Shown here in pieces: positions 5,426-59,432 of a DNA stretch of 64,000 nucleotides. Numbering within the stretch: position 1 is the first letter of the stretch; every line of letters starts with the position of its first letter. Made by a program: the position numbers and the translations under genes. The notes below the pieces were generated by a model. It searched no databases. It had not been told where the DNA came from and worked only from the letters and a program-made list of their open reading frames with translations. Source of the DNA: a bacterium (GTDB lineage Bacteria; Patescibacteriota; Minisyncoccia; Phycocordibacterales; UBA5272). Where the stretch lies: contig JAHFMX010000002.1 in assembly GCA_023267635.1 (NCBI GenBank), positions 21,307 to 85,306 on the forward strand, written 5' to 3'.

Positions 5426-5432
5426 CTCTTAT

Positions 5433-5873: not shown

Positions 5874-6048
5874 ATACGTATAATTAATTTATAAGTGTCT
5901 TTCTTTAGTATACAACCATATATAGACAGAAAGAGATTTATACACACAGTGATATACATATAGATTGGATTTAGTAGTGCAAATAAGAATTTCACAAAAT
6001 ACAGAGCCACTTCCAGAAGAAAGTGACTCTGTACAATTTTCTTAGTTT

Positions 6049-19295: not shown

Positions 19296-20348
19296 ATGCG
19301 AGTTTTTACTAATCTATTTTCTAATTTGGTTAATATAGAAAACCTGTTTTTTGCATGGGAAGGGTTTAAAAAAGACAAGAAGAAAAAAGAAGATATTTTA
19401 GAGTTTGAGAAAATTATGGAAACTGAGATCTTTAAACTTCATAGAGAACTAATATCTTACACCTATCGACATAGTGGGTATATTGGATTTTATATATCTG
19501 ATCCAAAACGAAGACATATACATAAAGCAATTGTTCGAGATCGTATTTTACATCATGCAGTCATGAATATTCTTTATCCCCTTTACGATAAGATTTTTAT
19601 TCATAACTCTTTTTCTTGTCGAGTGGGCAAAGGTACACATAAAGGTGTTGATGCTATGAGATCCATGCTTTTAAAAGCAAGTAATAACAATACGAAAAAT
19701 GTATTTATTTTGAAGTGCGATATACAGAAGTTTTTTGATTCAGTTGATCATAATATCTTAATTCGTATTCTTCGTGAAAGAATTAAAGACGAAAAACTTA
19801 TGAATCTTCTTATTGAGGTGATCGACAGTTTTGATGGTAGTCAATCGAATCTTTTTGAAAGAAAAGGTCTTCCAATTGGCAATCTTACTTCTCAACTCTT
19901 TGCAAATGTTTACATGGACAAATTTGATCAATATGTGAAGCATGTACTTAAAGTTAAATACTATGCTCGATATACAGACGATTTTGTTGTAATTAGTGAT
20001 AATAAAGATTACTTATTATCACTAATTACAACCATTTCACTTTTTCTGAGTCATGAGTTAAAGCTCACGATACATCCTAAAAAGATTGAGATCCGTAAAT
20101 ATTCTCAAGGTATTGATTTTCTTGGTTATGTGGTTTTCCCTTATCATACGCAGGTTCGCAAGAGAACACTAAGGAGAGTAAGGAGAAAGTTGGATATTAA
20201 GGTGAAGTTATACAGAGCAGATAAGATTGATAAAACAAAACTGGACGCCACTCTTATGTCATATTTAGGGGTTCTTTCTCACGCAAACACTTACAGGTTT
20301 TCTGAGCAGATAAAAAATGAATACTTTTTATCTGCTAACGGTAATTAG
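19296..20348 (+). CDS. DGR-type reverse transcriptase
   Basis: N-terminal ENLFFAWEGFKKDKKKK. Motif 4 LPIGNLTSQLFANVYMD is the DGR hallmark I/LGxxxSQ. YTDDFVV matches YxDD. The start is taken at 19296; an alternative ATG lies at 19257. Confidence 0.85.
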   Translation: MRVFTNLFSNLVNIENLFFAWEGFKKDKKKKEDILEFEKIMETEIFKLHRELISYTYRHSGYIGFYISDPKRRHIHKAIVRDRILHHAVMNILYPLYDKIFIHNSFSCRVGKGTHKGVDAMRSMLLKASNNNTKNVFILKCDIQKFFDSVDHNILIRILRERIKDEKLMNLLIEVIDSFDGSQSNLFERKGLPIGNLTSQLFANVYMDKFDQYVKHVLKVKYYARYTDDFVVISDNKDYLLSLITTISLFLSHELKLTIHPKKIEIRKYSQGIDFLGYVVFPYHTQVRKRTLRRVRRKLDIKVKLYRADKIDKTKLDATLMSYLGVLSHANTYRFSEQIKNEYFLSANGN

Positions 20349-20391
20349 ATAATGAATACATATAATTTGATTACTATATTTTCTAGTTACT

Positions 20392-22695: not shown

Positions 22696-22699
22696 ATAA

Positions 22700-24406
22700 T
22701 TATAGTCGATTAATTTCTTTATAAACTTCTAGTATTGGTTCAGGAATATCCTCAATCCTTATATGTTTAGTGCTATATTCATTTCGGTATTCGTTTTTAC
22801 CCCAACCAAAAATATACAAAACTATCTGAAGTTTCTTTTTCTCAAGTAATGTAATTAGTTCCTTTAGTTTCTCTTTGTTTTCTTTGAAGTAAATTGCAGT
22901 AACTTTATTGTCACCCTCAAAAATCTGCCACCATTCTGTTTTCTCAATTTCGTTTAAAGTATTTTCTTTAACGGCTATCATTTCACCAGCTTGATAAGTT
23001 ACTTTAATTTTTGCTTCATCAGATATTTTGTGTAACTTTTCAATATCTACAAGATCAGTTTTGTAATATGACAAATTACCATTAAGCCCTTCAATTTTTT
23101 CTTCCTTCTTATTCTTATACCCCTTAATTACTCGTTTAATTCTTTCATAAGTAACCTCTTCACAAATTTTATTTTCATTATTAGTACAAAGAATAAATTT
23201 ACGATTACCACCATCTTGCTTATTAAGTTCAAGAACTGCATGACCTGTTGTTCCTGATCCTGCGAAGAAATCAAGAACGGTCGAATTTTTATCTGATGTT
23301 ATTTTTAATGCATCTTGTACAGCATAAACAGACTTAGGAAAACTAAAACTATTTTTATCTAAAATTTTATCCAATAATTGTGTACCATACCTCGTAGCAT
23401 TATATTTAGGTTTTATCCAATGTGTTTTAATAATCTGCTGTTCTCTATATTTTCTATAGATAGTAGGTTTGTTATTTTCAACTAAGATGACCACATCACC
23501 ATTTTTAAGATTTTCTTCAAAAGTATCCTTACTAGTATTCCATGTTCTCTCTTGCCCGCTTTCGGTTATTGGTAATACTTCTACATATCCATTTTTCTTA
23601 TCTAAACTTATATCTTTTGTTTTAAGGTCTACATAAATTGGATACCAACCATTTGGCTTATTTATTTTTAAACTAACATCCCCACCACCTCTTCTAAGAT
23701 ATTCCTCTAGTCTATACTTACCAATATCGTCCACTAAATTAAACTTTTCTGCATCATCTTCGTCAAGGGGTATATTTTTAATTTTTCCAACTAAATCATT
23801 TTTTGAATAAAATAAATAGTATTCATTGGTTGGATTAATAGATTTTGAGAATTGGCGACCTTCTGGTTTATGTACAACCGTAACAACTCCAGTTCTGTTA
23901 TTTTCTCCAAATATTTCATCACACAATGTACCTAAATAAAATAATTCATAATGGTCAATTGCTATTATTATAAAACCTTTCTCTGATAAGAGGTTTCTTG
24001 CAAGTATCAACCTATTTTCCATGAAAGATATCCATTTACTATGTCTCCACTGATCATTTGAGTCTACATAATCATTATTATATCTCCAATCACTAGACCC
24101 AGTATTGTATGGTGGATCAATGTAAATGACATCAATCTTACCTTTGTGTGTATAATTCAAAACAGAAAGAGTGTGGTAGTTATCTCCTTCAATGAGTAAA
24201 TTATTTAAATTACTTTCACCATCTATAATCTTCTTACTTTTAACTTCTTTAAGTACTGGAATATTTTCTTTACAAGAAAAAACAACATCCTCTGGTTTTC
24301 TTTCCCAGACAAGTCCAAACTTTTTTCTAGATTTAAGATTATTATTCTCAACCTCTAATTCTTTAATACGAGCTGTTAACTCTTGTTGTGTTTTATATTG
24401 AGACAT
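22700..24406 (-). CDS. mod: Type III restriction-modification DNA methyltransferase Mod subunit (N6-adenine/N4-cytosine class)
   Basis: 568 aa. Motif IV IDPPYNT, motif I FDFFAGSGTTGHA, and an N-terminal coiled coil. Confidence 0.85.
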   Translation of the reverse strand: MSQYKTQQELTARIKELEVENNNLKSRKKFGLVWERKPEDVVFSCKENIPVLKEVKSKKIIDGESNLNNLLIEGDNYHTLSVLNYTHKGKIDVIYIDPPYNTGSSDWRYNNDYVDSNDQWRHSKWISFMENRLILARNLLSEKGFIIIAIDHYELFYLGTLCDEIFGENNRTGVVTVVHKPEGRQFSKSINPTNEYYLFYSKNDLVGKIKNIPLDEDDAEKFNLVDDIGKYRLEEYLRRGGGDVSLKINKPNGWYPIYVDLKTKDISLDKKNGYVEVLPITESGQERTWNTSKDTFEENLKNGDVVILVENNKPTIYRKYREQQIIKTHWIKPKYNATRYGTQLLDKILDKNSFSFPKSVYAVQDALKITSDKNSTVLDFFAGSGTTGHAVLELNKQDGGNRKFILCTNNENKICEEVTYERIKRVIKGYKNKKEEKIEGLNGNLSYYKTDLVDIEKLHKISDEAKIKVTYQAGEMIAVKENTLNEIEKTEWWQIFEGDNKVTAIYFKENKEKLKELITLLEKKKLQIVLYIFGWGKNEYRNEYSTKHIRIEDIPEPILEVYKEINRL

Positions 24407-24429
24407 AGGGTAGACATCTATGTATCGGC

Positions 24430-24582
24430 TATAACATTAAAAATGGGTAGCCGAGTGTCTACCCATAGGTTGGAGTCGCGAGGAGTCCAATCATGGAACT
24501 CAGCTACCCGTTTTTACCCACGATTGGTAAAACGAAGTAGCCTCGCGACTCTATTATCAAAAGAGAAACCTATGGGTAGACT
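24430..24582. repeat. Large imperfect palindrome with nested inverted repeats between mod and the recombinase
   Basis: gtctacccatagg (24457-24469) pairs with cctatgggtagac (24568-24580), and ggagtcgcgagg pairs with cctcgcgactc. Additional arms are present. Confidence 0.5.
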
Positions 24583-24621
24583 GTATGATTATATCACTTA
24601 ATTAATAATTTTTATAGGTCA

Positions 24622-25941
24622 TCACAAAATAGTAATGACCTTATTTTTAAGTGTAATTTTAGAGTTTAAACATCTTAAGAATTCTCTCTTTTCTTCTATG
24701 TCTCCTTCAACCAAAATAAACTTCGCATAGTTTCTTATATCAATATCTTTTACTGTAACTTGGGCTTTTGTGCCTAAAAGTGTCTGTTGAAATAACTTAA
24801 ATCTTTTAACTTCACTAGCGATCTTTTCTCTCATGGGTACTGTTTTAATATCAATATCGTCCATTAGGTTTTTTAATTGTTCAAGCAAATCTTCCTCGTT
24901 AATAAACCCACAAGTACAATTCTGGTCTCTGGTTTTTGTACACTTATAATAAACATATCTATGAACATTTCCATTTTGTTGATGTTTGAATTTCTCGTCT
25001 GCTGTTATACCTGACCCACAAAGTCCGCAAGTCATGATTTTAGTAAAAGCAAATTCTTTTTGTCCTGATTTTGGTTGTAAAGTTTGACTCTTTACATTCT
25101 CTTGAACTAAATCAAAGAGTTCTTTTGTGATAATTGGTTTATGTGATCCGTTATACCATTTCCCAGATTTAGCAGGAAATTCAAACCGACCATAATATAT
25201 AGGATTTTGGAGGAGCCTATAAAAGTTTCCTAAACTTAGATGTATTCCATACTCCGATTTAAAATCAATATCATATCTAAGCCAGTGCCAAACTTTCTTT
25301 CCAGACCAGCCATCGTAAGCAATCTTTTCAAACATTTGCTTAATGAAAGGTGCACGATCTTGATCAATAACTAATTCACATTTTTGATCCATTCTTTTAA
25401 ATTTTGTATATCCTGTCGGTGGGCGACATGGCCATAACCCCATCTCTACTCTTGCTCTTAGTCCACGCTTTACATTGATACTCTTGTTATCATTTTCAAG
25501 TTTTGCTTGAGAACATAAAATCATCAATAAAAATTTTTCGTTAGGAGAGTTAGAAAAAGTTTGTCCATATGTCTGTATATGAATTAATTTTCGTTGATCC
25601 ATCAAATCAACAAGCGACCCGAGGTCGCCTGCATTTCTACTTAATCTATCTGGCGCCCATGTCAGCACACCGTTAAATTTTCCTTGATCTATTTCTTGTA
25701 ATAATTGTTTATATACTGGTCGTTGACCTGAAGCTTTAGCACTATGTGATTCTCGTTTTACTTCTACCACATACAATCCTAAACGCTCTGCTATCGCACT
25801 CATTTCTTTAATTTGTGAATCAATCGACAATGCTTGCATTTCATCTGACTCAGTTGATTTTCTAGCATATAGACAATATTTAACTCTTATTGGTGAAATT
25901 GTTATATTGCTTTCAATTCGTCCAATTGTGTTTGTTTCCAT
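24622..25941 (-). CDS. Large serine recombinase (phage-type integrase/resolvase)
   Basis: N-terminal YARKSTESDEMQALSIDSQ catalytic motif. Recombinase domain, then a zinc ribbon (CGLCGSG...YYKCTK) and a C-terminal coiled coil. Confidence 0.8.
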   Translation of the reverse strand: METNTIGRIESNITISPIRVKYCLYARKSTESDEMQALSIDSQIKEMSAIAERLGLYVVEVKRESHSAKASGQRPVYKQLLQEIDQGKFNGVLTWAPDRLSRNAGDLGSLVDLMDQRKLIHIQTYGQTFSNSPNEKFLLMILCSQAKLENDNKSINVKRGLRARVEMGLWPCRPPTGYTKFKRMDQKCELVIDQDRAPFIKQMFEKIAYDGWSGKKVWHWLRYDIDFKSEYGIHLSLGNFYRLLQNPIYYGRFEFPAKSGKWYNGSHKPIITKELFDLVQENVKSQTLQPKSGQKEFAFTKIMTCGLCGSGITADEKFKHQQNGNVHRYVYYKCTKTRDQNCTCGFINEEDLLEQLKNLMDDIDIKTVPMREKIASEVKRFKLFQQTLLGTKAQVTVKDIDIRNYAKFILVEGDIEEKREFLRCLNSKITLKNKVITIL

Positions 25942-26082
25942 ATTATATTAATGACAGAAATCACTAGTTTTGCTAAGTCTATGCAAGACTTAAAAAGCGT
26001 CGCATTGTGATACTTGAAACTCGTAGCAAAATAAAGGTTTTAATGTATCACAATATTTTAGAAATTGAACTGTTGATATCTT

Positions 26083-27585
26083 TTAGTCAACATCTACATA
26101 ATCTGAATGACGAATTATATCGTCATTACTTGTTCCAGGGCCAATCCAAGCAATAAGTATAGTTCCTTCGTTTGAGTGTTTTTCGAGTGTTGCGTTAACA
26201 AGTAGAGAAAAAGCATCCGCCAAGTCATCATGTTTTTCTACACCAAAGCCAACTAATTCTCTAATTAAATCTTCACACCCTTGTCGTGGAAACTTAATAA
26301 TTCCTGACTTAATAGAGGTAGAAGTAAGTGCTAGTCTTGTTCTTTTATCACCCTTTGGTTTTATTGCTTCTGCTTGAATTCCTTGCATTTGTAACATTTG
26401 TGGTAATGCTTCTTGATATGCAACACTTTCAACGAATAACTTATCAGTACTCTTTGGCATTTGAGTAATCTTGATGTTTTTCATGAGTTCAACTTGTGCG
26501 GGAAAGTTTAGTTTCTTGGTTATAGGATTAGGTAAGATATAGATTCGTAATTTATCTCTTCTTCCGTATATACGAGCCATAACAACAGCAGTAAAGTCGG
26601 CTGAATCACTTGCAGATATTGCAAGATCAACACCCGCATAAGTTCCACGATATGCCTTATGTGTAGCAGGAGGTAATTCATCGTAAAACTTTAACCACTC
26701 TGGGTAAATAACTTGGTCATCACTTGGAATAATACGAAGTAAGTATTCTCGTTGCCATGATACCTCACTAGCAACTTTTAGTTTCTCTTCCTCGATAGCT
26801 TCTTTATTTGGATATTTACCTGACCACAAACATATATCGTTTTCATCAAGTAATGGATACTGTTTGAATGTTCCTTTTGCCTTTCCATCCTTAATTTCTT
26901 CTTTTATTCTCATAAGTAGAGAATCTTCATGAAGTAAGTTACCTATAAGAATAAGTCGTGTATTTCTGTCTCCTGTAGGAATTACTTCACCGCGTAGCCA
27001 GTTATATGTTTTGTTTCTTCCTTCTCTTGTTTTAGCAGATTGCACATCTTCCACATCGTCGCAGATTATAAGATCAGGTCTATGTTCATTATGACGAATA
27101 CCACGAATACTTTGTTCAGTAGAAGCAACACTAATTCTTGCTCCATGTTTTTTAAATACCAATGAATATGATCCCCACTCGTCAGATTCCTCTTGGAAAG
27201 GACCGAGGTCTTTCTTGAGAAGATCATTATTCTCTAACTCTTGTTTAATGTTCATCATGTGCTGTTTCGCTTGTGCTCTTGTGTGACAGAAAATTACACA
27301 AAACTTTTTCTGTTGTTTTCCAAGTATCGCCCATATCGGATAAGCAGTTGTCGCCATCGTTGATTTACCTGATCCACGAAAAGCAACGACATATAAGTTT
27401 TCGTTATTACCTTTCTCTAGGAGGTGGATTATCTCTTTCTGGAAATCAGCCGTTTCGTACTTTACATAGTGAGCATAATAGAAATGAAAGAAGTAGAAAA
27501 AACTATCTTTAGTAATGGTGGTTCTAACCAATCTATCTTTCATCATTTTGTTTAGTAATGATTTATCAATGTTGTTATTTTTCAT
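26083..27585 (-). CDS. terL: Phage terminase large subunit
   Basis: 500 aa. Walker A AFRGSGKST, Walker B-like LIICDDVED, and a C-terminal RNaseH-like nuclease region. Confidence 0.75.
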   Translation of the reverse strand: MKNNNIDKSLLNKMMKDRLVRTTITKDSFFYFFHFYYAHYVKYETADFQKEIIHLLEKGNNENLYVVAFRGSGKSTMATTAYPIWAILGKQQKKFCVIFCHTRAQAKQHMMNIKQELENNDLLKKDLGPFQEESDEWGSYSLVFKKHGARISVASTEQSIRGIRHNEHRPDLIICDDVEDVQSAKTREGRNKTYNWLRGEVIPTGDRNTRLILIGNLLHEDSLLMRIKEEIKDGKAKGTFKQYPLLDENDICLWSGKYPNKEAIEEEKLKVASEVSWQREYLLRIIPSDDQVIYPEWLKFYDELPPATHKAYRGTYAGVDLAISASDSADFTAVVMARIYGRRDKLRIYILPNPITKKLNFPAQVELMKNIKITQMPKSTDKLFVESVAYQEALPQMLQMQGIQAEAIKPKGDKRTRLALTSTSIKSGIIKFPRQGCEDLIRELVGFGVEKHDDLADAFSLLVNATLEKHSNEGTILIAWIGPGTSNDDIIRHSDYVDVD

Positions 27586-27590
27586 ATTTG

Positions 27591-27992
27591 TTATTTATTA
27601 ATTTTTCTAATAGACTTTTGTTTTGTAATTGAAGCCAGTTTAAGAGCGTGTCTTACCACTTTTGCTTGAGACGGTGAAAGTGCTTCGTTGTCTTCTTTTG
27701 TCGTTATTTCAATCCTGTCTTTGTAGTTATCATTTCTATGACGCAACCAAAAAGAGATAGCCGAGTAGTTCTTCTCTTTGATCAGAGTAAGTAACTGTGA
27801 TTCACTCATGTCATTAACAAAAGCCACCCCACTTGTAAGTGCTTCATCCATTTTCTTCTCAAATGTTTTATCTTCCTTTCTCCAACGATAGACAGAGTTG
27901 CGAGATAGCCCTGTCTTCTCACATGCAACCTGTACTATCGGCACTTTTGTAAGCTCTTCTAAAAATTGATCTTGTATCTTATTCTTTTTCAT
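27591..27992 (-). CDS. Terminase small subunit-like HTH protein
   Basis: 133 aa. N-terminal HTH (VACEKTGLSRNSVYRWRKE). It is immediately upstream of terL. Confidence 0.45.
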   Translation of the reverse strand: MKKNKIQDQFLEELTKVPIVQVACEKTGLSRNSVYRWRKEDKTFEKKMDEALTSGVAFVNDMSESQLLTLIKEKNYSAISFWLRHRNDNYKDRIEITTKEDNEALSPSQAKVVRHALKLASITKQKSIRKINK

Positions 27993-29259
27993 AGAAGTTT
28001 TTGATTATCTCTGCTTTATTGCCAGTCAGTTTTTCGTAACGACGAATTGCCAAATCACAAAATACAGGTTCAATTTCTAGTGAGTACACCCTGCGACCAA
28101 GTTGTTCTGCACAGATCATAGTGCTTGCAGATCCTGAAAAGGCGTCAAAAATAATGTCACCTGGTTTAGTACAGCGCATAATGAATTTATGATGTAATTC
28201 TGGATTCTTACTTGTAGGGTGTTCCATCTGATTTGATGGAAGTCGCTTGGTTGCCCAGAGGTTTGATATTTCTTCAAGTAACTGGTTACCTGTACTTAAA
28301 TCTTTGTTCTGTATCTCGTTAAGATTTTTAACTAAATCAGATAAGTATGGTGACCCTTTACTTCCATAAACACAAAACTCTGTACACTTGTTAAATGCAA
28401 CAGCTGGGGTCGGTGATGAGTTGTTTTTAACCCAAACATTGAGTCTTCTATTCTTAATACCCAGTTCTATGTATAGCGTTTGAAAAACCCATACCCACGC
28501 TTCATCGCACCAGAATGCTACATGCAGGTCTTCTATAGATACAGCAAGAGCAGAATTCAAGACTTGTCGAATAAATTCCACATATTCTTTTGGTGATTGA
28601 TTGTCATCAAAGGTTCCTCCATAATTGCGAGTATTTCCTACACCTTTATCATACGAAAGCCCAATATTAAATGGCGGGTCACTGTAGATAGAGGTCGCTT
28701 TATGTTCACCGAATAGTTTTTGCACTGCATGTATGTTTGTTGAACTAGCACAGAGTAATTTGTGATCACCCATAATTATGAGATCACCCTTTTGCACAAC
28801 AGGGGTTTTTATTTTCTTTAATTCTTGATCTACATTGAACTTATCGTCTTTAGTGTCTCTATCTTCATCCCAAAACTTCGCAATTTCCATATCAGAAAAT
28901 CCTGCAAACTTTATGAGATCAAGATTAAATGATCTCAACTTTTCAAAATCCCACTCACCATCATTTACATTGCTTTCGAGTGCAATCTTGGTACGCTCAT
29001 CATCTGTGAGCGCACGATCTGGAATAAGAACAGACACTTCCTTAATTGCTAATTGAGTGAGTGCTGTTTTTCTTTGATTACCTGACAAAATTGTATTGTC
29101 GGTATCAACAACAATCACACTATGAAAACCACTTTGAATGATTTTATCTTTTAACTTCTCAAGTGCAACCTTTGTTATTTTCCGTGGGTTTTCTTTCCAA
29201 GGAATAAGATCTTTGACTTCTCGATTTTCTACACGCCATTGAATTTTTTGCATAAGCAT
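27979..29259 (-). CDS. ParB-like nuclease domain fused to DNA N6/N4 methyltransferase
   Basis: N-terminal ParB/Srx fold. Motif IV SDPPFNIG and motif I FDAFSGSASTMICAEQLGRRVYSLE. Confidence 0.75.
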   Translation of the reverse strand: MLMQKIQWRVENREVKDLIPWKENPRKITKVALEKLKDKIIQSGFHSVIVVDTDNTILSGNQRKTALTQLAIKEVSVLIPDRALTDDERTKIALESNVNDGEWDFEKLRSFNLDLIKFAGFSDMEIAKFWDEDRDTKDDKFNVDQELKKIKTPVVQKGDLIIMGDHKLLCASSTNIHAVQKLFGEHKATSIYSDPPFNIGLSYDKGVGNTRNYGGTFDDNQSPKEYVEFIRQVLNSALAVSIEDLHVAFWCDEAWVWVFQTLYIELGIKNRRLNVWVKNNSSPTPAVAFNKCTEFCVYGSKGSPYLSDLVKNLNEIQNKDLSTGNQLLEEISNLWATKRLPSNQMEHPTSKNPELHHKFIMRCTKPGDIIFDAFSGSASTMICAEQLGRRVYSLEIEPVFCDLAIRRYEKLTGNKAEIIKNFYEKE

Positions 29260-29421
29260 TTTATTTAATTAATTTCTAAATAAAATGTATGAAATAGAAA
29301 ATGCCTATTTCACACACGAAATAACAGAAGTCTAAAAAACTTCAATTATCTCTTGCGCGAAATAGGCACGGTCTAGGACGGTACACTATTCAACTTTTTA
29401 CTACGCATGAATAAACTATTG

Positions 29422-29823
29422 TCAGTTACCCTTTTTCATGCCACGAGTTAACCTGCCACCATTTTTACCTTGTAGAAAATGAGTTAGATCATCACCCGCA
29501 TAAATAGGAATACCTCCTTTTGGTAATTGGATTATTACTTTTTCTCCTGCTTTTTCATATTCACCAATAAGTGACATCAACTTTGAGTCACTAGGTAGAG
29601 GTATTTGAAAAGCAACAGTGTTACCTACTGGAGGGGAAACTGTTTTGATAGAAGAGTAAATTCTACCTGGTTTACCAAATCTAAAAGCATTCCTTATTTT
29701 TTCACCAATAGAAAGCGTAGGCTTTTTATTAGAAAGATGTAACTTTATATCGGTTAATTCAATAACTCTATACTTCATACCATCACGCATTTCTGTTGGT
29801 TTTACATTAATTTGGTAATCCAT
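29422..29823 (-). CDS. Hypothetical protein
   Basis: 133 aa with no recognisable motif. It sits between the ParB-methyltransferase gene and the divergent repressor. Confidence 0.3.
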   Translation of the reverse strand: MDYQINVKPTEMRDGMKYRVIELTDIKLHLSNKKPTLSIGEKIRNAFRFGKPGRIYSSIKTVSPPVGNTVAFQIPLPSDSKLMSLIGEYEKAGEKVIIQLPKGGIPIYAGDDLTHFLQGKNGGRLTRGMKKGN

Positions 29824-29911
29824 ACTTATATTATTCCATGGGTGGTGTATAATGTCAAACGATTGTTGATAGTAACTTGCTTTTCTAATTACACTTTACT
29901 ATAATAGTAAA

Positions 29912-30550
29912 ATGCATTTAATTCAAAAACAACTAATAGACCTAATAGCGACTAATCCAAATTTCGGAAAGCTAAGCTTAAGATCAATAGCGAAAGAAGT
30001 AGGTGCTGAAGGCAAGCCACAGACCGCTAAGTACCATTTACAAGAACTGGAAAAAGCTGGGTTTATTCAAATGAATCTAAAAGAAGGAATAATTAAACTA
30101 GTTAAAAAAGGTACAAATATATCTAGTAAAAGCCCTATCTTTTCAATACCAGTAGTAGGGTCTGCTAATTGTGGTTTACCAACAATATTTGCTGAACAGA
30201 ATATAGAAAACTTTTTAAAAGTTTCTTCCAGTATGTTACCAAAAAAGAAAAGTGGCTTATTTGCACTAATTGCAGACGGCGACAGTATGAATATGTGTAA
30301 CATAAACGGTAAGAGTATAGAAAGTGGAGATTTTGTACTAGTAGATAGTGAAGATAGGGTTTACAAAGATAAAGACATTGTAGTAGCTGTCGTTGATGGT
30401 TTAGCAACAATAAAAGAGCTTCATAGAGACCTAAAGAACAACAGAATAGTCTTAAAAGCTCTTTCAACTAAAAAGTATCTACCTATTTATCTAGGTGAGG
30501 ATGATGATTTTATCATAAATGGTAAAGTCGTGGGTATTATTAAAAGTTAA
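29912..30550 (+). CDS. CI/LexA-like repressor (HTH + S24 peptidase domain)
   Basis: N-terminal HTH (LRSIAKEVGAEGKPQTAKYHLQELEKAGFI). C-terminal GDSM serine and a downstream Lys (ATIKEL). It is divergent from the upstream gene. Confidence 0.7.
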   Translation: MHLIQKQLIDLIATNPNFGKLSLRSIAKEVGAEGKPQTAKYHLQELEKAGFIQMNLKEGIIKLVKKGTNISSKSPIFSIPVVGSANCGLPTIFAEQNIENFLKVSSSMLPKKKSGLFALIADGDSMNMCNINGKSIESGDFVLVDSEDRVYKDKDIVVAVVDGLATIKELHRDLKNNRIVLKALSTKKYLPIYLGEDDDFIINGKVVGIIKS

Positions 30551-34881: not shown

Positions 34882-37437
34882 TTACTTTGCAGCCATCAAC
34901 TGCTGATGCTCTTCTGTGTTTATTTCTCCACACTTCTTCCACTTCTTTCCTGATCCACATGGACATTCATCATTACGTCCAATCTTTTCTTTTGTAGTAC
35001 TTGCCTCCGCTCCTCCTTGATTAGGAATAACTGGTACAAAGTTCTGAGCGGCAGCAGCTTGTGCTTGCTGTTGCGCAAAAAATCCATCTAGGTTTTCTAT
35101 AAACAAAACAAGTTCACCGCGAAGTGTTGCTTCGAGATTCTTGAATGCTCGAAGACCTTCTTTCTTGTATTCAACAAGTGGATCTCGTTGTCCGTATGCA
35201 CGAAGGTTCACTGAACTACGAAGATGTTCCATAGAATCCAAATGTTCCATCCACAATGTGTCAATAATCTGGAGCATCATAACACGCACGATGTGGTGCA
35301 CAGCTTCTTTCGAATACTTTTCTTCCTTAGCTTTAATAGTGTCAGCAAGTTCTGGTTTCTCCGCAACAAGTTCTGCAAAAATTTCTTCAACAATTCCTTC
35401 ATCTCCGTAGAGAATCTTGCGACGCTTACTGTAAATACTTGTACGCTGGTGATTCAAAACATCGTCATACTGAAGTGTGTGCTTTCGAGTATCGAAGTGG
35501 AATCCTTCGATCTTTTCCTGAGCCCCTTCAAGCGCACGAGATACAAGCTTTGAAGCAACTGGTTCATCTTCTGGAATACCGAAGCGTCCCATCATGTTTT
35601 TAATGTTTGATGAACCGAACACACGCATCAAATCATCTTCAAGTGACACGAAGAACTGTGTTTCTCCAACATCCCCCTGACGTCCTGAACGACCACGGAG
35701 CTGATTATCGATACGACGAGCTTCATGACGTTCTGTACCAATAACATACAAACCTCCATATGAAAGTACATCTTCTCGTTCTGATTCTGTAGCTGAAGGA
35801 CCACCTAACTTAATGTCCACTCCACGACCCGCCATGTTTGTAGCAATAGTTACGGCACCTTTCTTTCCAGCCTCTGCAACAATTTCTCCTTCCTTCTCAT
35901 GATTCTTCGCATTAAGAACAGCATGTGGCACACCAGCACGTTTAAGGTATTCTGAAATCTCTTCGTTCTTTTCAATTGAAATAGTACCAATAAGAACTGG
36001 TTGTCCTTTCTCATTAAGTTCCTTCACCTTTTTAGTAAGTGCTTGCCACTTACCCTTTTCTGTTTGGAAAATATAATCCTCATGATCCTTACGTCTAATT
36101 TCGTTGTGTGTTGGAACAGGTGTTACAACAAGACCATACACTTTATAGAATTCTTCCTTTGATGTTTCTGCAGTTCCTGTCATTCCAGCAAGCTTTTCAT
36201 AGAAGCGGAAGTAGTTCTGGAATGTGATAGACGCAAGTGTGCGTGACTCTTGCTCAATCTTTACTCCTTCTTTTGCTTCTACTGCCTGATGAAGCCCGTC
36301 TGACCAACGACGTCCTGGTTGCATGCGACCCGTAAATTCATCCACAATCACAACCGCACCATCACGTACCACGTATTCACGTTCACGAATAAAGAGTGCT
36401 TTTGCTTTAACAGCAGTTTCCAAATGATGCACCTGCTTTACTCCTTCTAGAGAATAGATGTTTGCTATACCGAGCGCACTTTCTGCTTTTGTAATACCAG
36501 CTTCTGTGAGAGAAATAGCTCGCTGCTTTTCATCTACTGTATAATCGTCCCCTTCAATAAGGTCGTTAGCAATGTGTGAAAACTTTTTATATAAATCACT
36601 TGATTCCTGCGCTGGTGCAGAAATAATAAGCGGAGTACGTGCTTCATCAATAAGGATTGAGTCGATTTCATCCACAATCGCATAGTGATGAGTATGCTGT
36701 GCAATAGCTTCTTTACTGTATCCGATGTTGTCGCGAAGATAATCGAATCCAAACTCGTTGTTTGTTCCATAGGTAATGTCTGCTAAGTACGCTTCCTGAC
36801 GATTACAGGTCTTAAGGAAATCATATACAACTTTGTACGACCCAACTTCATCACGAATAGCGTCTTCTTCTGTTTGAACTTTAGCACTTGAATCATACAT
36901 GAATGATGTCTGGTGGTTGATGACCGAAACAGAAAGACCGAGCGCATCATATACCTGACCCATCCATACTGCATCACGACGTGAAAGATAATCATTCACG
37001 GTAACAATGTGCACACCTCGTCCAGTGAGCGCATTCAAATACGCAGGGAGTGTCGCAACAAGTGTTTTACCTTCTCCTGTTCTCATTTCTGCAATATGTC
37101 CACGGTGAAGAAGCATTCCTCCAATAACCTGTACACGGTAGTGCATCATATGAAGTGTACGACGAGCACTTTCACGCACAAGAGCAAATGCTTCTGGAAG
37201 AACTTCATCAAGTACTTTCTTTTCAACACGCTTTAGTTCATCTCCTTTGAGACCCTCAAGCTCTTTCATAACGCGGGCTTTAAGGGCAAGACCTCTATTC
37301 TTAAGAAGCTCATCAGTGAGTCCTTTTAATTCTTCCTCATATGAAAATACCTTGTCAGCAACAGGTTGGAGAGATTTTATAAGCTTTTTTGACTCGTCTG
37401 GGAAAATAGACGCAATTCCTTTAGAAAATAGAGACAT
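34882..37437 (-). CDS. secA: Preprotein translocase ATPase SecA
   Basis: 851 aa. MRTGEGKTLVATLPAYLNAL, DEAD-like motifs, and a C-terminal zinc finger CPCGSGKKWKKC. Confidence 0.9.
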   Translation of the reverse strand: MSLFSKGIASIFPDESKKLIKSLQPVADKVFSYEEELKGLTDELLKNRGLALKARVMKELEGLKGDELKRVEKKVLDEVLPEAFALVRESARRTLHMMHYRVQVIGGMLLHRGHIAEMRTGEGKTLVATLPAYLNALTGRGVHIVTVNDYLSRRDAVWMGQVYDALGLSVSVINHQTSFMYDSSAKVQTEEDAIRDEVGSYKVVYDFLKTCNRQEAYLADITYGTNNEFGFDYLRDNIGYSKEAIAQHTHHYAIVDEIDSILIDEARTPLIISAPAQESSDLYKKFSHIANDLIEGDDYTVDEKQRAISLTEAGITKAESALGIANIYSLEGVKQVHHLETAVKAKALFIREREYVVRDGAVVIVDEFTGRMQPGRRWSDGLHQAVEAKEGVKIEQESRTLASITFQNYFRFYEKLAGMTGTAETSKEEFYKVYGLVVTPVPTHNEIRRKDHEDYIFQTEKGKWQALTKKVKELNEKGQPVLIGTISIEKNEEISEYLKRAGVPHAVLNAKNHEKEGEIVAEAGKKGAVTIATNMAGRGVDIKLGGPSATESEREDVLSYGGLYVIGTERHEARRIDNQLRGRSGRQGDVGETQFFVSLEDDLMRVFGSSNIKNMMGRFGIPEDEPVASKLVSRALEGAQEKIEGFHFDTRKHTLQYDDVLNHQRTSIYSKRRKILYGDEGIVEEIFAELVAEKPELADTIKAKEEKYSKEAVHHIVRVMMLQIIDTLWMEHLDSMEHLRSSVNLRAYGQRDPLVEYKKEGLRAFKNLEATLRGELVLFIENLDGFFAQQQAQAAAAQNFVPVIPNQGGAEASTTKEKIGRNDECPCGSGKKWKKCGEINTEEHQQLMAAK

Positions 37438-37611
37438 AAGGGTTACATTATAGCATATTTAGAGGTATTTTACCTCGTTTGTATTGATGTTTTTATTTAG
37501 ATGTTTCAGGTGCGCGACGCGGATCTAGGAGCGAAGAGCGACGAAGAGTCCCGTAGCTAGTAAGCGAAGGAACATTTGACTTCACCTTACAAAGCAAGTG
37601 GACATATAAAC

Positions 37612-37643
37612 AAAAAAGCACCCGTGGGAGTGGGTGCTTTTTT
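37612..37643. terminator. Bidirectional terminator
   Basis: aaaaaagcaccc-gtgggagt-gggtgctttttt. Confidence 0.55.
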
Positions 37644-37661
37644 GAAAATCGCAAGCGATGA

Positions 37662-37784
37662 CTATGCACGCTTTGCTGACTTCTTTGCTGACTTCTTCTT
37701 TGCAACTTTCTTAGTAGCCTTCTTTGCTGCCTTCTTGACTGCCTTCTTTGCTACTTTCTTTGCTGCTTTCTTCTTTGCTGCCAT
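37662..37784 (-). CDS. Histone H1-like lysine/alanine-rich nucleoid protein
   Basis: MAAKKKAAKKVAKKAVKKAAKKATKKVAKKKSAKKSAKRA. The start is taken at the internal Met; the longer ORF extends to 37877. Confidence 0.5.
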   Translation of the reverse strand: MAAKKKAAKKVAKKAVKKAAKKATKKVAKKKSAKKSAKRA

Positions 37785-38060
37785 AAAATTATTTTTATTA
37801 TACAAATAAGAGAGTGTTTTGTAATTTGTTTTTATGATCACGACCATGATCACTACTCTCTTATATAAGTATGACACTCATACAACTACACACAAGATAA
37901 AAAATAGTTTTATGTGTGGATAACTCAAATTATTTTTTTAGTAAAAAAAATTTAAAATAATTTTTAAAAATAAAAAGAAAATACTTGTATGTGTATACAT
38001 GCAAATGCGAAGATATTGCAAAATAAATACACGAACTACTATCTACATAAAGCGCTTATG

Positions 38061-38105
38061 TACCAATACAAAAGCGATGCTTATCGCATCGCTTTTGTAT
38101 TGGTA
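38061..38105. terminator. Perfect 20-bp stem hairpin (bidirectional terminator) downstream of the SET gene
   Basis: taccaatacaaaagcgatgc-ttatc-gcatcgcttttgtattggta. Confidence 0.55.
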
Positions 38106-38113
38106 CGTTTTTA

Positions 38114-38698
38114 TTATTTAGTTTTCTTCTCTGCTTCTTCTGTTTCGCTAACTCCTTTAGCGCCGTAAGAATGTTTTTTAGCAACACATCTACATCCGTA
38201 CGGTGAAATGTATTCTTTCACAAATTCTTCTCCATAATCATACACAATCTCATCTCCTTCTTTAATATTTTTAATTGCTGATATAAATACTCTTCCTTTT
38301 TTGATATCACTTTCAGCGTTTGCGGCTTCTTCACATGCGTGATTACAATAGCGAGCAATGTTCCATCGCACCTGTCCGTTGATTGTCTTGTTACGATTGA
38401 TCTCGAAAAGATACTGATTAGTTGTAATCTTGTCTGACTCCTCTTTATTTAAAATAATTCCAATGTACTCAATAATCAACTCCCCTTTCTTGATATTCTC
38501 TCCTGCGAAGAGCCCTAATCCTGCAAGCCCTCTTTTAACCTTAACCACTTTAAAGTGATGATCTGGTAAATTCTTAGTATTTGGTGATACTTTTTCAATC
38601 ACCTTCTTCTTTGATACAGATGCTTTCTTTAAAATCTTTGACTGTTTGTCTAACTTCTTTCCAACTGCTTTCGTGGCCGTCTTGCTTTTCTTTGTCAT
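38114..38698 (-). CDS. SET-domain protein lysine methyltransferase with Lys-rich N-terminal tail
   Basis: GELIIEYIGIIL, NHACEEAAN (NHSC-like motif), EIVYDYGEEF, and post-SET cysteines CRCVAKK. The N-terminal tail is MTKKSKTATKAVGKKL. Confidence 0.65.
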   Translation of the reverse strand: MTKKSKTATKAVGKKLDKQSKILKKASVSKKKVIEKVSPNTKNLPDHHFKVVKVKRGLAGLGLFAGENIKKGELIIEYIGIILNKEESDKITTNQYLFEINRNKTINGQVRWNIARYCNHACEEAANAESDIKKGRVFISAIKNIKEGDEIVYDYGEEFVKEYISPYGCRCVAKKHSYGAKGVSETEEAEKKTK

Positions 38699-38784
38699 AA
38701 TGCATGAAAGCATACTATATATAGACACCACACAGCAAGAAAACAGGGGTAAAAATTATAAAAAAATGATAGGATACATAGTAT

Positions 38785-46612: not shown

Positions 46613-46976
46613 TTATACCATGAGAAAATACCGCCCTTGTGGGACGGTATTTTCATATATTCTTTGTCTATAAGCCGAATTCTGTGTTTGTGTAGACATG
46701 TATCTAGGATGATAGTCACCTATCACCTCAAGCGACACTCCTTTCGATTACTCAAAAGGCACGGTCTTGCACACACGTATGTATTTAGCCGTTTCAGCCG
46801 AATTAAATCGGATCGTTTCTGTTCGCAACACGGTGGTCACCCACGACGGGCATTACCCGCTACGCTTGTCATGTAAACATGACTATGTGTTCGGACTTTC
46901 CTCACGATATTACTATCGCGCGTCTACCCAACAAAGAACCTACACATACTACAACGAAAGAACCATTCTGTATAGC

Positions 46977-58894: not shown

Positions 58895-59432
58895 TTAGGC
58901 AGAAATAAAAGCTGGAGCAATATCCTTTGACCATTCTTCAAGCTCTTTTCGAAGCTGATTAACTTCTTTGATCTCAGGTAGTTTCCCTCCCAAGATTTTA
59001 AAATGAGCTGTGTTCGAAATGTACTTTGGACGATGTGGATGTGGTGGTCGACACACAGGATACGTAGTACCTGGTTTACAACCCAACGGGATCACATCAA
59101 TCATAGTTCCTGATTCTTCATGCAGTAGCCATGAATGTGGCACTTGATTCATTACCACTGGGAGCGGCAATGAGTCATGCGTTCTTGAAATCAAGCTATG
59201 AGGCTTCCAATCTGAGTTCATTAAAGAGCCTGCAACCTCAGGCGCAACATCAACAAGGAATCCGTAGTGCGCCTGAAGTAACTTTGGAAACATCATTTCA
59301 AAGGCACTCACCAAAAGATGCACATTGAGATACTGTGGTAATGGTGATTCCCTGTGCTTCACATACAACCTATCAATGACCACCTGAACTTGCCCACATA
59401 GGACCTCACCTTTTTCAAGAACATTATTCATA
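58895..59432 (-). CDS. Hypothetical protein (moderately higher GC); the longer ORF extends to 59536
   Basis: ORF only. HSWLLHEESG and HPHRPKY hint at a possible metal-binding fold that could not be assigned. Confidence 0.25.

Follow-up and report, generated by a model that had tools for sequence, protein, structure and literature searches.

Does a bacterium that encodes a SET-domain protein next to a tiny Lys/Ala-rich protein use the one to modify the other? This question is raised by a 64-kb stretch of Patescibacteria DNA (the whole stretch analyzed, referred to as the window), in which both genes lie on the minus strand and the ATG of the small ORF follows 329 bp downstream of the SET stop codon. 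The original prediction, drawing on a chlamydial SET-domain enzyme and its histone H1-like substrates, saw here a bacterial histone-like modification pair. Both ORFs are present where it had placed them: a 40-aa AKK-repeat ORF lies ∼330 bp downstream of, and on the same strand as, a SET ORF with NHACE and YDYG motifs, post-SET cysteines, and a Lys-rich N-terminal tail (Table 1). For the full picture of two real and separately transcribed genes, a SET methyltransferase gene and an autonomous peptide cassette that are related as proposed below, we see an even chance.

Table 1. Features of the locus in window coordinates, with the evidence or particulars for each
Feature	Position	Strand	Particulars
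SET-domain protein gene (putative protein lysine methyltransferase)	38114..38698	-	194 aa; Pfam SET, PDB, homologues, AF2
Basic N-terminal tail of SET, residues 1-45	38564..38698	-	∼32% Lys, predicted disorder
SET catalytic core, residues 60-156	38231..38521	-	GLGLFA, ARYCNHAC, EIVYDYG; alignments, KMT2C/KMT2D residue match
Post-SET segment C169-R-C171-VAKK-H176	38171..38194	-	C-x-C-x4-H; alignments
Predicted intrinsic terminator of the SET gene	38060..38106	-	Inner stem GCGATGC/GCATCGC, then UUUUGUAUU
Conserved palindrome, consensus ATGCAAAT-GCTTCGC-ATTTGCAT	38000..38022	-	Imperfect in the window
Perfect DnaA box TTATCCACA	37915..37923	-	139 nt upstream of ATG, ∼41 nt upstream of -10
Predicted small-gene promoter	37868..37895	-	-35 TTGTGT 37890..37895, 16-nt spacer, extended -10 TGtCATACT 37868..37876
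Predicted 5' leader, ∼75 nt	37785..37861	-	Alignment, RNAalifold
Small Lys/Ala-rich protein gene, unannotated	37662..37784	-	40 aa, period-4 xKKx repeats; orthologues
Predicted small-gene intrinsic terminator	37611..37644	-	13-bp stem, loop ACUCCCAC, then U-tract

The SET-domain protein and its predicted fold

The SET ORF covers positions 38114–38731 when counted from a GTG codon on the minus strand; its likely start is ATG 38698 (194 aa, MTKKSK...) or ATG 38713 (199 aa, as in P0001). The Pfam SET model (PF00856) matched the window protein over its full model length with 78 bits, compared with a cut-off of 22.4 bits (E = 8.7e-22), which upholds the original domain assignment. The best sequence matches in the PDB are the SET domains of KMT2C, KMT2D, and MLL1 (E = 3e-14), and the identity to the best matches of the KMT2/G9a type is 29–31%. 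A total of 1317 homologues were retrieved at E ≤ 0.001; those that carry a name belong to Patescibacteria. In the AF2 model, built on a 119-sequence MSA, the mean pLDDT is 78, and most of residues 50–190 reach 82–97. When this model was submitted to Foldseek, the MLL1 SET domain ranked first (E = 3e-11, target-normalized TM 0.72), followed by G9a. The window protein is predicted by the model to carry an MLL1-like SET β-fold.

The catalytic core contains all of the expected motifs. GLGLFA represents the GxG SAM site, ARYCNHAC includes the NHxC motif (NHACE, residues 119–123), and EIVYDYG (YDYG, residues 153–156) provides Tyr-153 at the Phe/Tyr switch as well as the catalytic Tyr-155. Gly-62, Asn-119, His-120, Cys-122, and Tyr-155 are invariant in an alignment of 35 sequences that includes non-Patescibacteria; Tyr-153 is conserved to at least 90% in the same alignment and is invariant among 119 Patescibacteria sequences. 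The catalytic tyrosine and the NHxC residues, with which the original prediction stands or falls, are intact, and an active methyltransferase is very likely. By analogy to MLL1 and DIM-5, Tyr-153 at the switch position predicts mono- or dimethylation. In the post-SET segment, Cys-169 and Cys-171 are invariant in every SET alignment, whereas the invariance of His-176 extends over the 119 Patescibacteria homologues but not over the broader set of 35 sequences. Together with Cys-122, which is available, the C-x-C-x4-H motif forms a putative zinc site.

The core is preceded by the basic tail, in which residues 1–40 show pLDDT values mostly of 40–56. This tail holds a semi-conserved motif, KQSKILKKGS, and Lys-18, Ser-20, and Leu-23 are nearly invariant in the alignments. 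The disordered polybasic tail is probably a nucleic acid tether, and the protein as a whole would be a cytoplasmic MLL/G9a-like protein lysine methyltransferase with an intact SAM site. Downstream of the stop codon, the stem of the predicted terminator can be extended to a 20-bp hairpin, and 36 of the 62 related loci likewise have a terminator-like hairpin with a T-run behind the SET stop.

The small Lys/Ala-rich gene and its signals

The small ORF runs from ATG to TAG, encodes MAAKKKAAKKVAKKAVKKAAKKATKKVAKKKSAKKSAKRA (40 aa; MAAKKK...AKRA), and is the sole ORF of such Lys/Ala-rich composition within the 64-kb window. Its orthologues in 62 genome loci comprise 21–52 aa; most begin with MAAKKKA, and many end with AKRA. 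A PDB sequence search with the 40-aa peptide gave no match at E ≤ 10, and the Pfam search with the window protein gave no meaningful match even at the same permissive threshold. A phmmer-type search with the peptide in 5.8 billion proteins yielded 2019 word candidates, of which none scored, as the bias filter discards low-complexity matches. The orthologue of locus L064 scored 16.9 bits on the HC2 model, below the cut-off of 40. A winged-helix domain of linker histone H1 was matched neither in Pfam nor in the PDB, and 40 aa of xKKx repeats leave no room for one. The label “histone H1-like” is appropriate for the composition of the protein, which is Lys/Ala-rich and resembles a tail, but not for its family, as the Hc1 and HC2 Pfam models fail. 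A scan of the region for tRNA and tmRNA genes found none.

HU, SWIB, and endonuclease III proteins encoded on other contigs begin with tails of the same MAAKKKA type, which offers an analogy for DNA binding by the peptide. We consider it reasonably likely that the peptide binds nucleic acid. It would most likely serve as a nucleic acid counter-ion or compaction factor, like a C-terminal tail of H1 without the globular domain.

As judged from its sequence, the small gene forms a self-contained cassette that consists of a DnaA box, a sigma-70-type promoter, a ∼75-nt leader, the tiny ORF, and a terminator. The DnaA box is the only exact one in the 64-kb window. The identical 9-mer recurs on the same strand, 127–150 nt from the ATG, in all 63 loci (the 62 genome loci and the window). 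Among the SecA-linked metagenome loci, 18 extend far enough upstream for the comparison, and 17 of these have the box; in more distant lineages, it lies 99–203 nt from the ATG. Most SecA-retaining loci have the conserved palindrome 35–60 nt before the DnaA box, and in L060 its orientation is reversed. The possibility that the locus is oriC was rejected on the basis of the single exact DnaA box, the lack of enrichment of 1-mismatch boxes, and a monotonic cumulative GC skew.

The promoter layout (DnaA box, N13–18, TATTGT/CTTGTG, N16–17, TGnGATAAT/CATACT) is conserved in every sampled lineage. We infer a transcription start near position 37860, ∼7 nt past CATACT, so that the DnaA box would lie ∼60 nt upstream of it, an arrangement that suggests expression coupled to replication status. 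Control of this promoter by DnaA is an evenly balanced proposition.

Within the predicted leader, stem P1 is formed by GAGAGT (37855–37860) and ACTCTC (37810–37815), and P2 (GTGATCA-TGGTCG-TGATCAT, 37834–37853) presents an invariant GGTCG (37841–37845); a proximal TGTATAAT follows at 37797–37804 (minus strand). Across the alignment, 96% of the cells are paired, a value not attained by any of 500 shuffles. A-U and G-C alternate at the closing pair in 9 sequences, with G-U wobbles; this covariation, from which the leader structure is modeled, is modest. Across lineages, GGTCG is found 42–62 nt from the ATG. A universal stem beside it was discarded, as in distant lineages such a stem is significant only in some loci, and so was a GGTCG hairpin recurring upstream of other genes of the window, for which three weak candidates appeared at roughly chance level.

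The loop of the small-gene terminator is constant (CUCCCAY, with TCCCA at 37625–37629 in the window). Of 63 loci, 45 present TCCCA as the loop of a hairpin with a stem of 5 bp or more, and 33 distinct stem sequences occur. This loop was dismissed as a general terminator feature of the genome because the hairpin is the sole long one of its kind before a T-tract. No Rfam family covers the leader or the terminator at E ≤ 10. A sub-threshold match to Rfam BTnc231 lies on the opposite strand, between the small-gene terminator and secA.

Gene order and distribution

Of 80 species-level Patescibacteria loci, 62 have an orthologous small ORF, which in every case follows SET in the same orientation and never precedes it, and the pairing holds down to ∼50% SET identity. 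Such pairing is far beyond chance, and the conserved adjacency in related genomes on which the original prediction had staked its case does exist.

This synteny could be explained by a dedicated enzyme–substrate pair, in which the main job of SET would be to methylate the neighboring H1-like peptide and the adjacency would be under selection. Such a pair would account for the constant order and orientation of the genes, also in ∼19 loci that keep the adjacency without SecA in the available downstream sequence; a basic SET tail would suit the same polyanion as the peptide, and cpnSET with Hc1 and Go1-SET with MC1-α provide precedents, the first of them weakened by the failure of NUE to act on full-length Hc1. 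The organization of the locus argues against it. The SET gene ends at a terminator of its own, and the small gene starts from a separate DnaA-box promoter and closes with a second terminator, so that each gene forms a transcription unit by itself; with these signals and the 329-bp spacer, the sequence gives no indication of cotranscription or translational coupling.

The adjacency is, furthermore, one of several in a collinear housekeeping block, Hsp20-ValRS-SET-AKK-SecA. Gaps of ≤400 nt separate Hsp20 and ValRS in 55 of 61 loci, ValRS and SET in 43 of 65, and SET and AKK in 42 of 62. The SET-AKK junction is no tighter than the Hsp20-ValRS or ValRS/SET junctions, and insertions of 0.8–3.8 kb containing genes separate SET from the small gene in about one-quarter of the loci.

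Each of the two genes also occurs without the other nearby at some of the sampled loci. SecA follows the small ORF in 20 metagenome loci, and in 19 of these the available upstream sequence of 0.2–11.6 kb has no SET gene; the upstream neighbors of the small gene vary among these SecA-linked loci. Conversely, SET lacks a nearby small gene in L049, L050, and L053 and in nine loci outside the syntenic Patescibacteria block. Outside Patescibacteria, SET has no histone-like neighbor and is followed by a gene that, as judged from its ORF sequence, is S4- or pseudouridine-synthase-like. Many of the metagenome loci come from Patescibacteria at greater phylogenetic distance, most sampled lineages have the small gene without SET nearby, and the small gene is by far the more widespread of the two.

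The modification pair of the original prediction is therefore retained in part: the adjacency is conserved, but separate transcription units, the collinear block, and a cassette that is widespread without adjacent SET speak against a dedicated pair, which we regard as the less likely explanation. The cassette is old, and it is found widely across Patescibacteria, as a rule directly before secA. One clade of the Paceibacteria/Nomurabacteria type has the SET gene between valS and the cassette, and the order valS-SET-cassette would have been inherited with the rest of the collinear housekeeping block.

Alternative roles of the two genes

The peptide might instead be a polycation associated with the ribosome or RNA, equivalent to a free-standing Ala/Lys tail of the uS19 type; the leader would be autoregulatory, and any link to SET would lie in the modification of translation components. 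In Parcubacteria, uS19 carries a C-terminal region of ∼25 aa that is rich in Ala and Lys and specific to the lineage (PMC9297842). Autoregulated RNA-binding and ribosomal proteins typically have structured leaders, and in ribosomal-protein mRNAs of this kind the conserved element keeps a constant distance from the start codon, as it does here; the neighbors valS, lepA, and secA are housekeeping genes of translation and secretion. Replication-linked control is indicated, however, by the constant place of the DnaA box in the promoter, and the same tails occur on the DNA-binding proteins HU, SWIB, and EndoIII. The known tiny ribosomal proteins are Arg-rich and heterogeneous and not simple AKK repeats. 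Taken together, we consider a ribosomal role unlikely.

An alternative that concerns SET alone is that of an exported effector, through which Patescibacteria, often episymbionts, would act on proteins of the host cell in the manner of Legionella RomA/LegAS4 or Chlamydia NUE, with the small gene as a coincidental neighbor. Characterized bacterial SET proteins are mostly effectors (PMC3980110), and an NCBIfam model of Legionella AnkI/LegAS4 gave a partial match (E = 3e-9). This match reflects the shared SET domain alone, with 36 bits compared with a cut-off of 550. The SET translation contains no hydrophobic N-terminal segment, signal peptide, or recognizable secretion signal; the gene is stable inside a housekeeping block and not part of an island, and the hosts are likely to be prokaryotes, which lack H3 and H4. 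All this makes an effector function improbable.

The small ORF could also be untranslated, with a conserved non-coding RNA in its place or with the Phe/Ala-rich antisense frame as the coding strand. It is low in complexity and flanked by conserved 5' and 3' RNA elements, and the exact sequences of the 10 small proteins that were tried are missing from a collection of 15 billion proteins. Differences between orthologue pairs at codon positions 1, 2, and 3 number 290, 292, and 705, a periodicity that is not decisive alone, as one antisense frame has the same wobble positions and fits it equally. The boundaries of the ORF are more telling: ATG and stop exactly bracket the repeat in 63 of 63 loci, although the lengths vary from 21 to 52 codons. 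The codons of the C-terminal K-R-A also vary, with CGT, CGC, CGA, or AGA for arginine and GCA, GCT, or GCG for alanine, and the AGA form is synonymous in the sense frame only. The orientation of the DnaA box, the promoter, and the U-tract agrees with the sense strand in each case, and an antisense ORF would have to cross a terminator whose stem sequence is unconserved. The antisense Phe/Ala-rich ORF at 37576–37809 was excluded as a real gene by these boundaries and by the orientation of the signals. Lysine codon usage in the small ORF (AAG 16 : AAA 3) departs from that of the long ORFs of the window (411 : 623; Fisher p = 1.5e-4). The lack of a Shine-Dalgarno sequence before the small ORF is normal because the organism does not use such sequences, which precede 1 of 29 long ORFs. 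Translation of the small peptide is likely, and an untranslated ORF is very improbable.

Finally, a cis-regulatory secA leader peptide (SecM-like or a Lys-codon attenuator) without a functional protein, which would make SET irrelevant, fits the many lineages in which the ORF precedes secA by 60–400 nt and a hairpin separates the two, but can be largely dismissed given the strong intrinsic terminator followed by a -10 box of secA itself (TGCTATAAT in the window, 9 nt before the ATG; TGTGnTAATAT in other loci), the ∼19 loci that keep the cassette without SecA in the available downstream sequence, the insertions of up to 4.6 kb between cassette and secA, the absence of a signal peptide or arrest motif from the ORF, and its preference for AAG over the slippery AAA.

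Proposed mechanism and significance

Our preferred reading is that SET most plausibly methylates lysines of Lys-rich proteins bound to nucleic acid. The neighboring peptide, whose free N-terminus A-A-K-K-K is similar to A-R-T-K of H3, would be the best candidate substrate, and the KK-rich tail of SET itself, which the original prediction had likewise named, the second candidate. Methylation would then be a lineage-specific regulatory layer that the peptide does not require. An enzyme–substrate pair is plausible; that the small protein is the physiological substrate of SET is a possibility to which we lend limited credence. In its most far-reaching form, the proposal describes a mini-histone with which ultra-small Patescibacteria would package their DNA: an H1-tail-like polycation of 20–50 residues, coupled to replication through its DnaA-box promoter, tuned through a novel GGUCG element of the leader, and methyl-marked in one clade by a dedicated MLL-type SET enzyme that has a DNA-tethering tail of its own. 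We regard this form as doubtful. If true, it would represent an endogenous bacterial chromatin-modification system that is unrelated to host manipulation.

Nearly all characterized SET enzymes of bacteria are effectors injected by pathogens for the methylation of host histones, and the action of bacterial SET enzymes on nucleoid proteins of their own cell rests so far on one contested chlamydial report. The locus described here adds an MLL-like SET protein shared by hundreds of Patescibacteria species from the environment, with a polybasic tail, a housekeeping setting, and no secretion signal. The candidate substrate beside it is small enough for peptide synthesis, which makes the question directly testable in vitro. 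Irrespective of SET, the tiny gene seems to encode an overlooked and widely conserved Lys/Ala-rich small protein of Patescibacteria, and its regulation is unusually rich, with an invariant DnaA box, an invariant GGUCG leader, and a terminator of fixed loop. If the peptide is the main DNA counter-ion in such small cells, it would bear on genome compaction and replication there.

Comparison with known systems

The position of the small ORF immediately upstream of secA in many lineages recalls SecM-secA. Unlike SecM, the small ORF has a terminator and secA a promoter of its own, signal and arrest sequences are missing, and the ORF is kept where secA does not follow.

In style, the peptide matches the AKK and PAKK-type repeats, polycationic and probably disordered, that form the tails of H1, mycobacterial HupB/MDP1, Ku, and Streptomyces HupS and DdbA. 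Lys/Ala/Pro-rich tails of this kind (H1 C-terminal domain, HupB/MDP1, Ku, HupS, DdbA) raise DNA affinity and compaction. Whereas these tails are attached to other domains such as a winged helix or an HU fold, neither of which is present here, the tail is the entire protein in our case. The compositional resemblance to tails of H1 and nucleoid proteins is not homology.

The SET protein has its best matches, in sequence as well as in fold, in KMT2 (MLL1-4, SET1) and G9a/GLP. It shares with KMT2 and G9a the GxG, R-Y-x-N-H-x-C, and E-x-x-Y-D-Y motifs, and its post-SET spacing C-x-C-x4 is the same as in MLL1, including the inner “AKK,” whereas the last post-SET ligand is a histidine here and a cysteine in MLL1. 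In contrast to KMT2 and G9a, the protein lacks a Win motif, N-SET and pre-SET modules, and WRAD partners; the whole protein comprises 194 aa and carries a polybasic tail.

By description, the closest bacterial parallel is Chlamydia, which has a SET methyltransferase and in the same genome a Lys/Ala-rich histone H1-like protein. There, cpnSET reportedly bound Hc1 and Hc2 and methylated Hc1 (PMC3980110). According to Pennini et al., the Hc1 substrates given to cpnSET were truncated fragments, and NUE did not methylate full-length Hc1 (PMC2904774). The chlamydial precedent invoked by the original prediction thus holds as a reported methylation of Hc1 by cpnSET but is contested. NUE is an effector delivered through type III secretion, with H2B, H3, and H4 of the host as its targets, whereas the SET protein described here has no secretion signal and is encoded within a housekeeping block. 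The small protein (21–52 aa among orthologues) also differs from Hc1 and Hc2, as it fails both Pfam models. NUE automethylates at Lys-209 and Lys-210 (PMC2904774), two adjacent lysines, which bears on the KK-rich tail of our SET protein.

A further parallel is archaeal. Go1-SET of Methanosarcina mazei methylates the chromatin protein MC1-α (PMC3980110). In contrast to our repetitive polycation, MC1 has a defined fold, a length of ∼90 aa, and only one target lysine, and gene adjacency is not claimed for that system. It is similar in the essential point, as a prokaryotic SET enzyme that acts on an endogenous, abundant DNA-binding protein is the mechanism that we propose for this locus.

The SET Protein

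The SET gene most likely begins at either of two ATG codons, the upstream one being used in the database protein entry P0001. The PF00856 profile matched the protein with 78 bits (E = 8.7e-22), and among PDB sequences the KMT2C, KMT2D, and MLL1 SET domains matched best (E = 3e-14 to 2e-13), ahead of G9a/GLP and NSD. In an AF2 model built from a 119-sequence alignment, pLDDT averages 78, and most of residues 50–190 score 82–97. Foldseek placed the MLL1 SET domain first among PDB entries (E = 3e-11, target-normalised TM 0.72) and G9a next, so that KMT2 and G9a SET domains are nearest by both sequence and fold.

Residue-level alignment identified GLGLFA (GxG, SAM site), ARYCNHAC (R-Y-x-N-H-x-C motif), and EIVYDYG, which confirms the NHACE and YDYG motifs and post-SET cysteines of the original prediction. 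Asn-119, His-120, Cys-122, Tyr-153, Tyr-155, Cys-169, Cys-171, and His-176 are invariant among 119 close homologues; Gly-62, Asn-119, His-120, Cys-122, Tyr-155, Cys-169, and Cys-171 are invariant in a 35-sequence set that also takes in homologues from outside the syntenic Patescibacteria block. Spacing in the post-SET segment (C-R-C-V-A-K-K-H) matches that of MLL1 (C-N-C-G-A-K-K-C), with the final cysteine replaced by histidine. Tyr-153 occupies the Phe/Tyr-switch position, and the enzyme is therefore predicted, by analogy with Tyr-3942 of MLL1 and Phe-281 of DIM-5, to be a mono- or di-methyltransferase.

The lysine-rich N-terminal tail, also correctly anticipated, comprises residues 1–45, contains a semi-conserved KQSKILKKGS motif, and is predicted to be disordered from its low AF2 confidence. 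A signal peptide is absent from the sequence. We conclude that the protein is a SET-domain lysine methyltransferase of the cytoplasm that bears a polybasic tail and is very probably active as an enzyme.

The Small Gene

Both ORFs are present as predicted, separated by a spacer of 329 bp. The small one encodes MAAKKKAAKKVAKKAVKKAAKKATKKVAKKKSAKKSAKRA, and no other ORF in the 64-kb window has such a Lys/Ala-rich composition. Scanning with a regular expression recovered orthologues of 21–52 amino acids alongside SET in 62 of 80 genome loci, most with a conserved MAAKKKA start and many with an AKRA end. Same-length orthologue pairs differ 290, 292, and 705 times at codon positions 1, 2, and 3, respectively, and the terminal K-R-A codons vary (CGT, CGC, CGA, or AGA; GCA, GCT, or GCG). 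Lysine codons in the small gene are AAG over AAA by 16:3, whereas the genome favours AAA (623:411; Fisher p = 1.5e-4).

A Phe/Ala-rich antisense frame (plus-strand ORF 37576..37809) has wobble positions in common with the small ORF, so periodicity alone does not decide for sense coding. We prefer the sense frame because the repeat lies exactly between an ATG and a stop in all loci, because the directions of promoter and terminator match the sense strand, and because AGA/CGN synonymy is valid in the sense frame only. The antisense ORF, which would also have to traverse a terminator with a non-conserved stem, is disfavoured as a real gene on all these grounds.

None of 10 exact orthologue sequences occurred in a 15-billion-protein collection, and profile searches are insensitive to the small peptide. 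Pfam gave no above-cut-off match; one orthologue scored sub-threshold on HC2 (16.9 bits versus 40). The predicted term “histone H1-like” therefore holds for composition, not for homology. The resemblance to H1 C-terminal tails and to the PAKK-type tails of actinobacterial HU and Ku is likewise compositional only. A literature search found no description of the small Lys/Ala-rich protein.

MAAKKKA... Lys/Ala-rich N-terminal tails also occur on HU (metagenome loci L175 and L182), SWIB (L092, L111, and L155), and endonuclease III (L132), all on other, unrelated contigs; Pfam confirms L175, L111, L092, and L132. Such a distribution fits a generic DNA-affinity element.

Signals of the Small-gene Cassette

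Positions and strands of the SET gene, the small gene, and the signals around them
Feature	Position	Strand
SET ORF	end 38114; start ATG 38698 (194 aa) or ATG 38713 (199 aa)	-
SET intrinsic terminator	38060..38106	-
Conserved palindrome	about 38000..38022	-
A/T-rich tract	between palindrome and DnaA box	-
Perfect DnaA box, TTATCCACA	37915..37923	-
-35 element, TTGTGT	37890..37895	-
Extended -10, TGtCATACT	37868..37876	-
Predicted transcription start	near 37860	-
Leader, ~75 nt	about 37785..37861	-
Helix P1, GAGAGU with ACUCUC	37855..37860 pairing with 37810..37815	-
Hairpin P2, loop UGGUCG	37834..37853 (GGTCG 37841..37845)	-
Proximal TGTATAAT	37797..37804	-
Small ORF	37662..37784	-
Small-gene terminator, loop ACUCCCAC	37611..37644	-

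All signals were read on the minus strand. The DnaA box lies on the same strand, 127–150 nt 5' of the small-ORF ATG, in 63 of 63 loci (the window and 62 genome loci) and 99–203 nt 5' of it in more distant lineages; the layout of box, -35, and extended -10 is alignable across lineages. No second exact DnaA box occurs in the 64-kb window, boxes with one mismatch show no enrichment, and the cumulative GC skew does not turn across the window. This rules out an oriC at this site, and the box is therefore a promoter element.

In the leader, GGTCG stands 42–62 nt 5' of the ATG, whereas its distance to the -10 box ranges from 22 to 55 nt, and the steadier spacing to the ATG argues for an mRNA-level element. 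GGTCG is found in nearly all loci outside one subgroup, which reads GGTCC or GGTCA. In the close set of the leader alignment, the P2 closing pair alternates between A-U and G-C in nine sequences, with additional G-U wobbles, and 96% of P2 cells are paired, a value matched by 0 of 500 shuffles; in distant lineages the stem flanking GGTCG is significant in only some loci. The terminator has a TCCCA loop in 45 of 63 loci, carried on stems of 33 different sequences, and this loop is not general among terminators of this genome. Rfam has no family over the leader element or the terminator.

The terminator loop is constant as CUCCCAY and resembles the anticodon-loop consensus Y-U-CCC-A-Y. The only other long TCCCA-loop hairpin in the window (10 bp, tcattgccgcTCCCAgtggtaatga) lies at ~59140..59165 (minus strand), within or beside ORF 58895..59536. 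The palindrome between SET terminator and DnaA box, ATGCAAAT-GCTTCGC-ATTTGCAT, is clearer in genome loci L005–L035 and has an inverted centre in locus L060; it may serve to bind a protein or form a second hairpin.

Gene Order and Distribution

A pattern scan of species-representative genomes yielded 355 stretches encoding a SET relative, from which 80 loci were retrieved. Most Patescibacteria loci have the order Hsp20, ValRS (divergent from SET), SET, small gene, a variable insert of 0–4.6 kb, SecA, and Mur ligase, with LepA and two small genes farther upstream. Gaps of ≤400 nt were found at the Hsp20–ValRS junction in 55 of 61 loci, at ValRS–SET in 43 of 65, at SET–small gene in 42 of 62, and at small gene–SecA in 16 of 42; in 11 loci the SET–small gene gap exceeds 1 kb. 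The SET–small gene junction is conserved, though no more than those of the housekeeping neighbours.

In about 19 loci, most with 49–63% SET identity, ValRS, SET, and the small gene are retained, and SecA is absent from the 1.3–5.7 kb of downstream sequence available (>5.4 kb in about eleven). SET occurs without the small gene in L049, L050, and L053 and in nine loci outside the synteny that bear the labels Moranbacteria, Bdellovibrionales, or Alphaproteobacteria; an S4 or pseudouridine-synthase-like gene, judged from ORF sequence only, follows SET in six of these nine.

A metagenome scan with the degenerate small-gene start ATGGCAGCAAARAARAARGC returned 120 contigs, ~65 of which start a small K-rich ORF at the match. 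SecA (48–72% identical to that of the window) lies downstream in 20 of the ~65 loci, beginning 60–420 nt 3' of the small ORF in 18. The DnaA box and GGTCG recur in these SecA-linked loci, and 19 of the 20 lack SET in the 0.2–11.6 kb of available upstream sequence, the exception being L142. Upstream neighbours of the metagenome cassettes are diverse (ORF sequences: MurB-like twice, a Ddl-like protein, and others). The cassette is therefore ancient and widespread, and SET is a clade-specific neighbour. We reject a function of the small ORF as a secA leader because the terminator and secA's own -10 box lie in between and because loci with no secA in the available downstream sequence still retain the cassette.

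Among otherwise collinear loci, ValRS falls into two classes by identity to the window (~50% versus 65–85%, comparing L006, L007, L012, L014, L025, L033–L035, and L038 with the others), and SET, Hsp20, and SecA identities are similar across them; this suggests that valS was displaced by a distant homologue in some lineages. The valS–SET gap is ~640 nt in L001, the nearest relative (5343..5985; SET identity 98%), versus ~55–85 nt in the window (38699..38784), so the divergent promoter region has recently gained or lost sequence.

Genomic Setting

The genome belongs to Patescibacteria of the Parcubacteria/Paceibacteria type; the public contig nearest to it belongs to a “Candidatus Nomurabacteria” MAG (SET identity 98%). 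Overall GC is ~40%. Bacterial RNase P RNA (46655..46939, minus strand; 118 bits, cut-off 100) spans 285 nt versus 367 model positions, the sort of reduced structural RNA expected for Patescibacteria. A Shine-Dalgarno-like core precedes just 1 of 29 long ORFs. The secA -10 box lies only 6–9 nt 5' of its ATG in the window (37437..37470, minus strand) and in metagenome loci L147, L174, and L179; it reads TGCTATAAT in the window and TGTGnTAATAT in others. Initiation in this organism thus appears to be mostly leaderless or independent of SD sequences.

A low-GC island (~20000..30000; GC 0.30–0.35 versus ~0.41 elsewhere) encodes type III restriction-modification (Res helicase and N6/N4 DNA methylase), a large serine recombinase, and a terminase-like protein, and is probably an integrated mobile element or prophage remnant. 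Between small-gene terminator and secA, a GC-rich stretch (37470..37575) in otherwise AT-rich spacer overlaps a sub-threshold plus-strand Rfam match to BTnc231 (33.6 bits, cut-off 80.4); the stretch may represent a structured RNA or have no significance.

Relation of the Two Genes and Comparison with Known Systems

The small-gene cassette, comprising a DnaA box, a leader with GGUCG, an unannotated mini-protein, and a terminator with a fixed loop, is a sturdier result than the SET pairing and probably the more novel one. Its peptide would bind nucleic acid, as suggested by composition and by the MAAKKKA... module on DNA-binding proteins. Expression may be coupled to DnaA and, through it, to replication status, with the leader adding post-transcriptional control. 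The SET enzyme, possibly tethered to the same polyanion by its own tail, would methylate Lys-rich, nucleic-acid-bound proteins. The neighbouring peptide is the best candidate substrate, and the SET tail is the second by analogy with NUE, which automethylates on Lys-209/Lys-210 (PMC2904774).

A ribosome or RNA role of the peptide is a less probable alternative; uS19 of Parcubacteria has a tail of similar A/K-rich make-up (PMC9297842). RNA-binding proteins under autoregulation typically have structured leaders.

The predicted modification pair is upheld in so far as an intact SET enzyme with a basic tail and an autonomous, conserved tiny-polycation gene are collinear across the clade. Against it stand the separate transcription signals, a junction no tighter than its neighbours, and a cassette mostly found without a nearby SET. 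We consider it rather doubtful that the peptide is the SET substrate, because inherited gene order explains the adjacency equally well and because in most lineages no SET lies near the peptide gene.

A literature search found no paper joining “SET domain” with Patescibacteria. Functionally, two systems come nearest, cpnSET with Hc1 in Chlamydia pneumoniae and Go1-SET with MC1-alpha in Methanosarcina (PMC3980110). Of these, the chlamydial one is contested. NUE is secreted and targets host histones, and full-length Hc1 was not methylated by NUE (PMC2904774). Pairing of SET with a polycation joins the present locus to the already known association of prokaryotic SET enzymes with endogenous chromatin-protein candidates.
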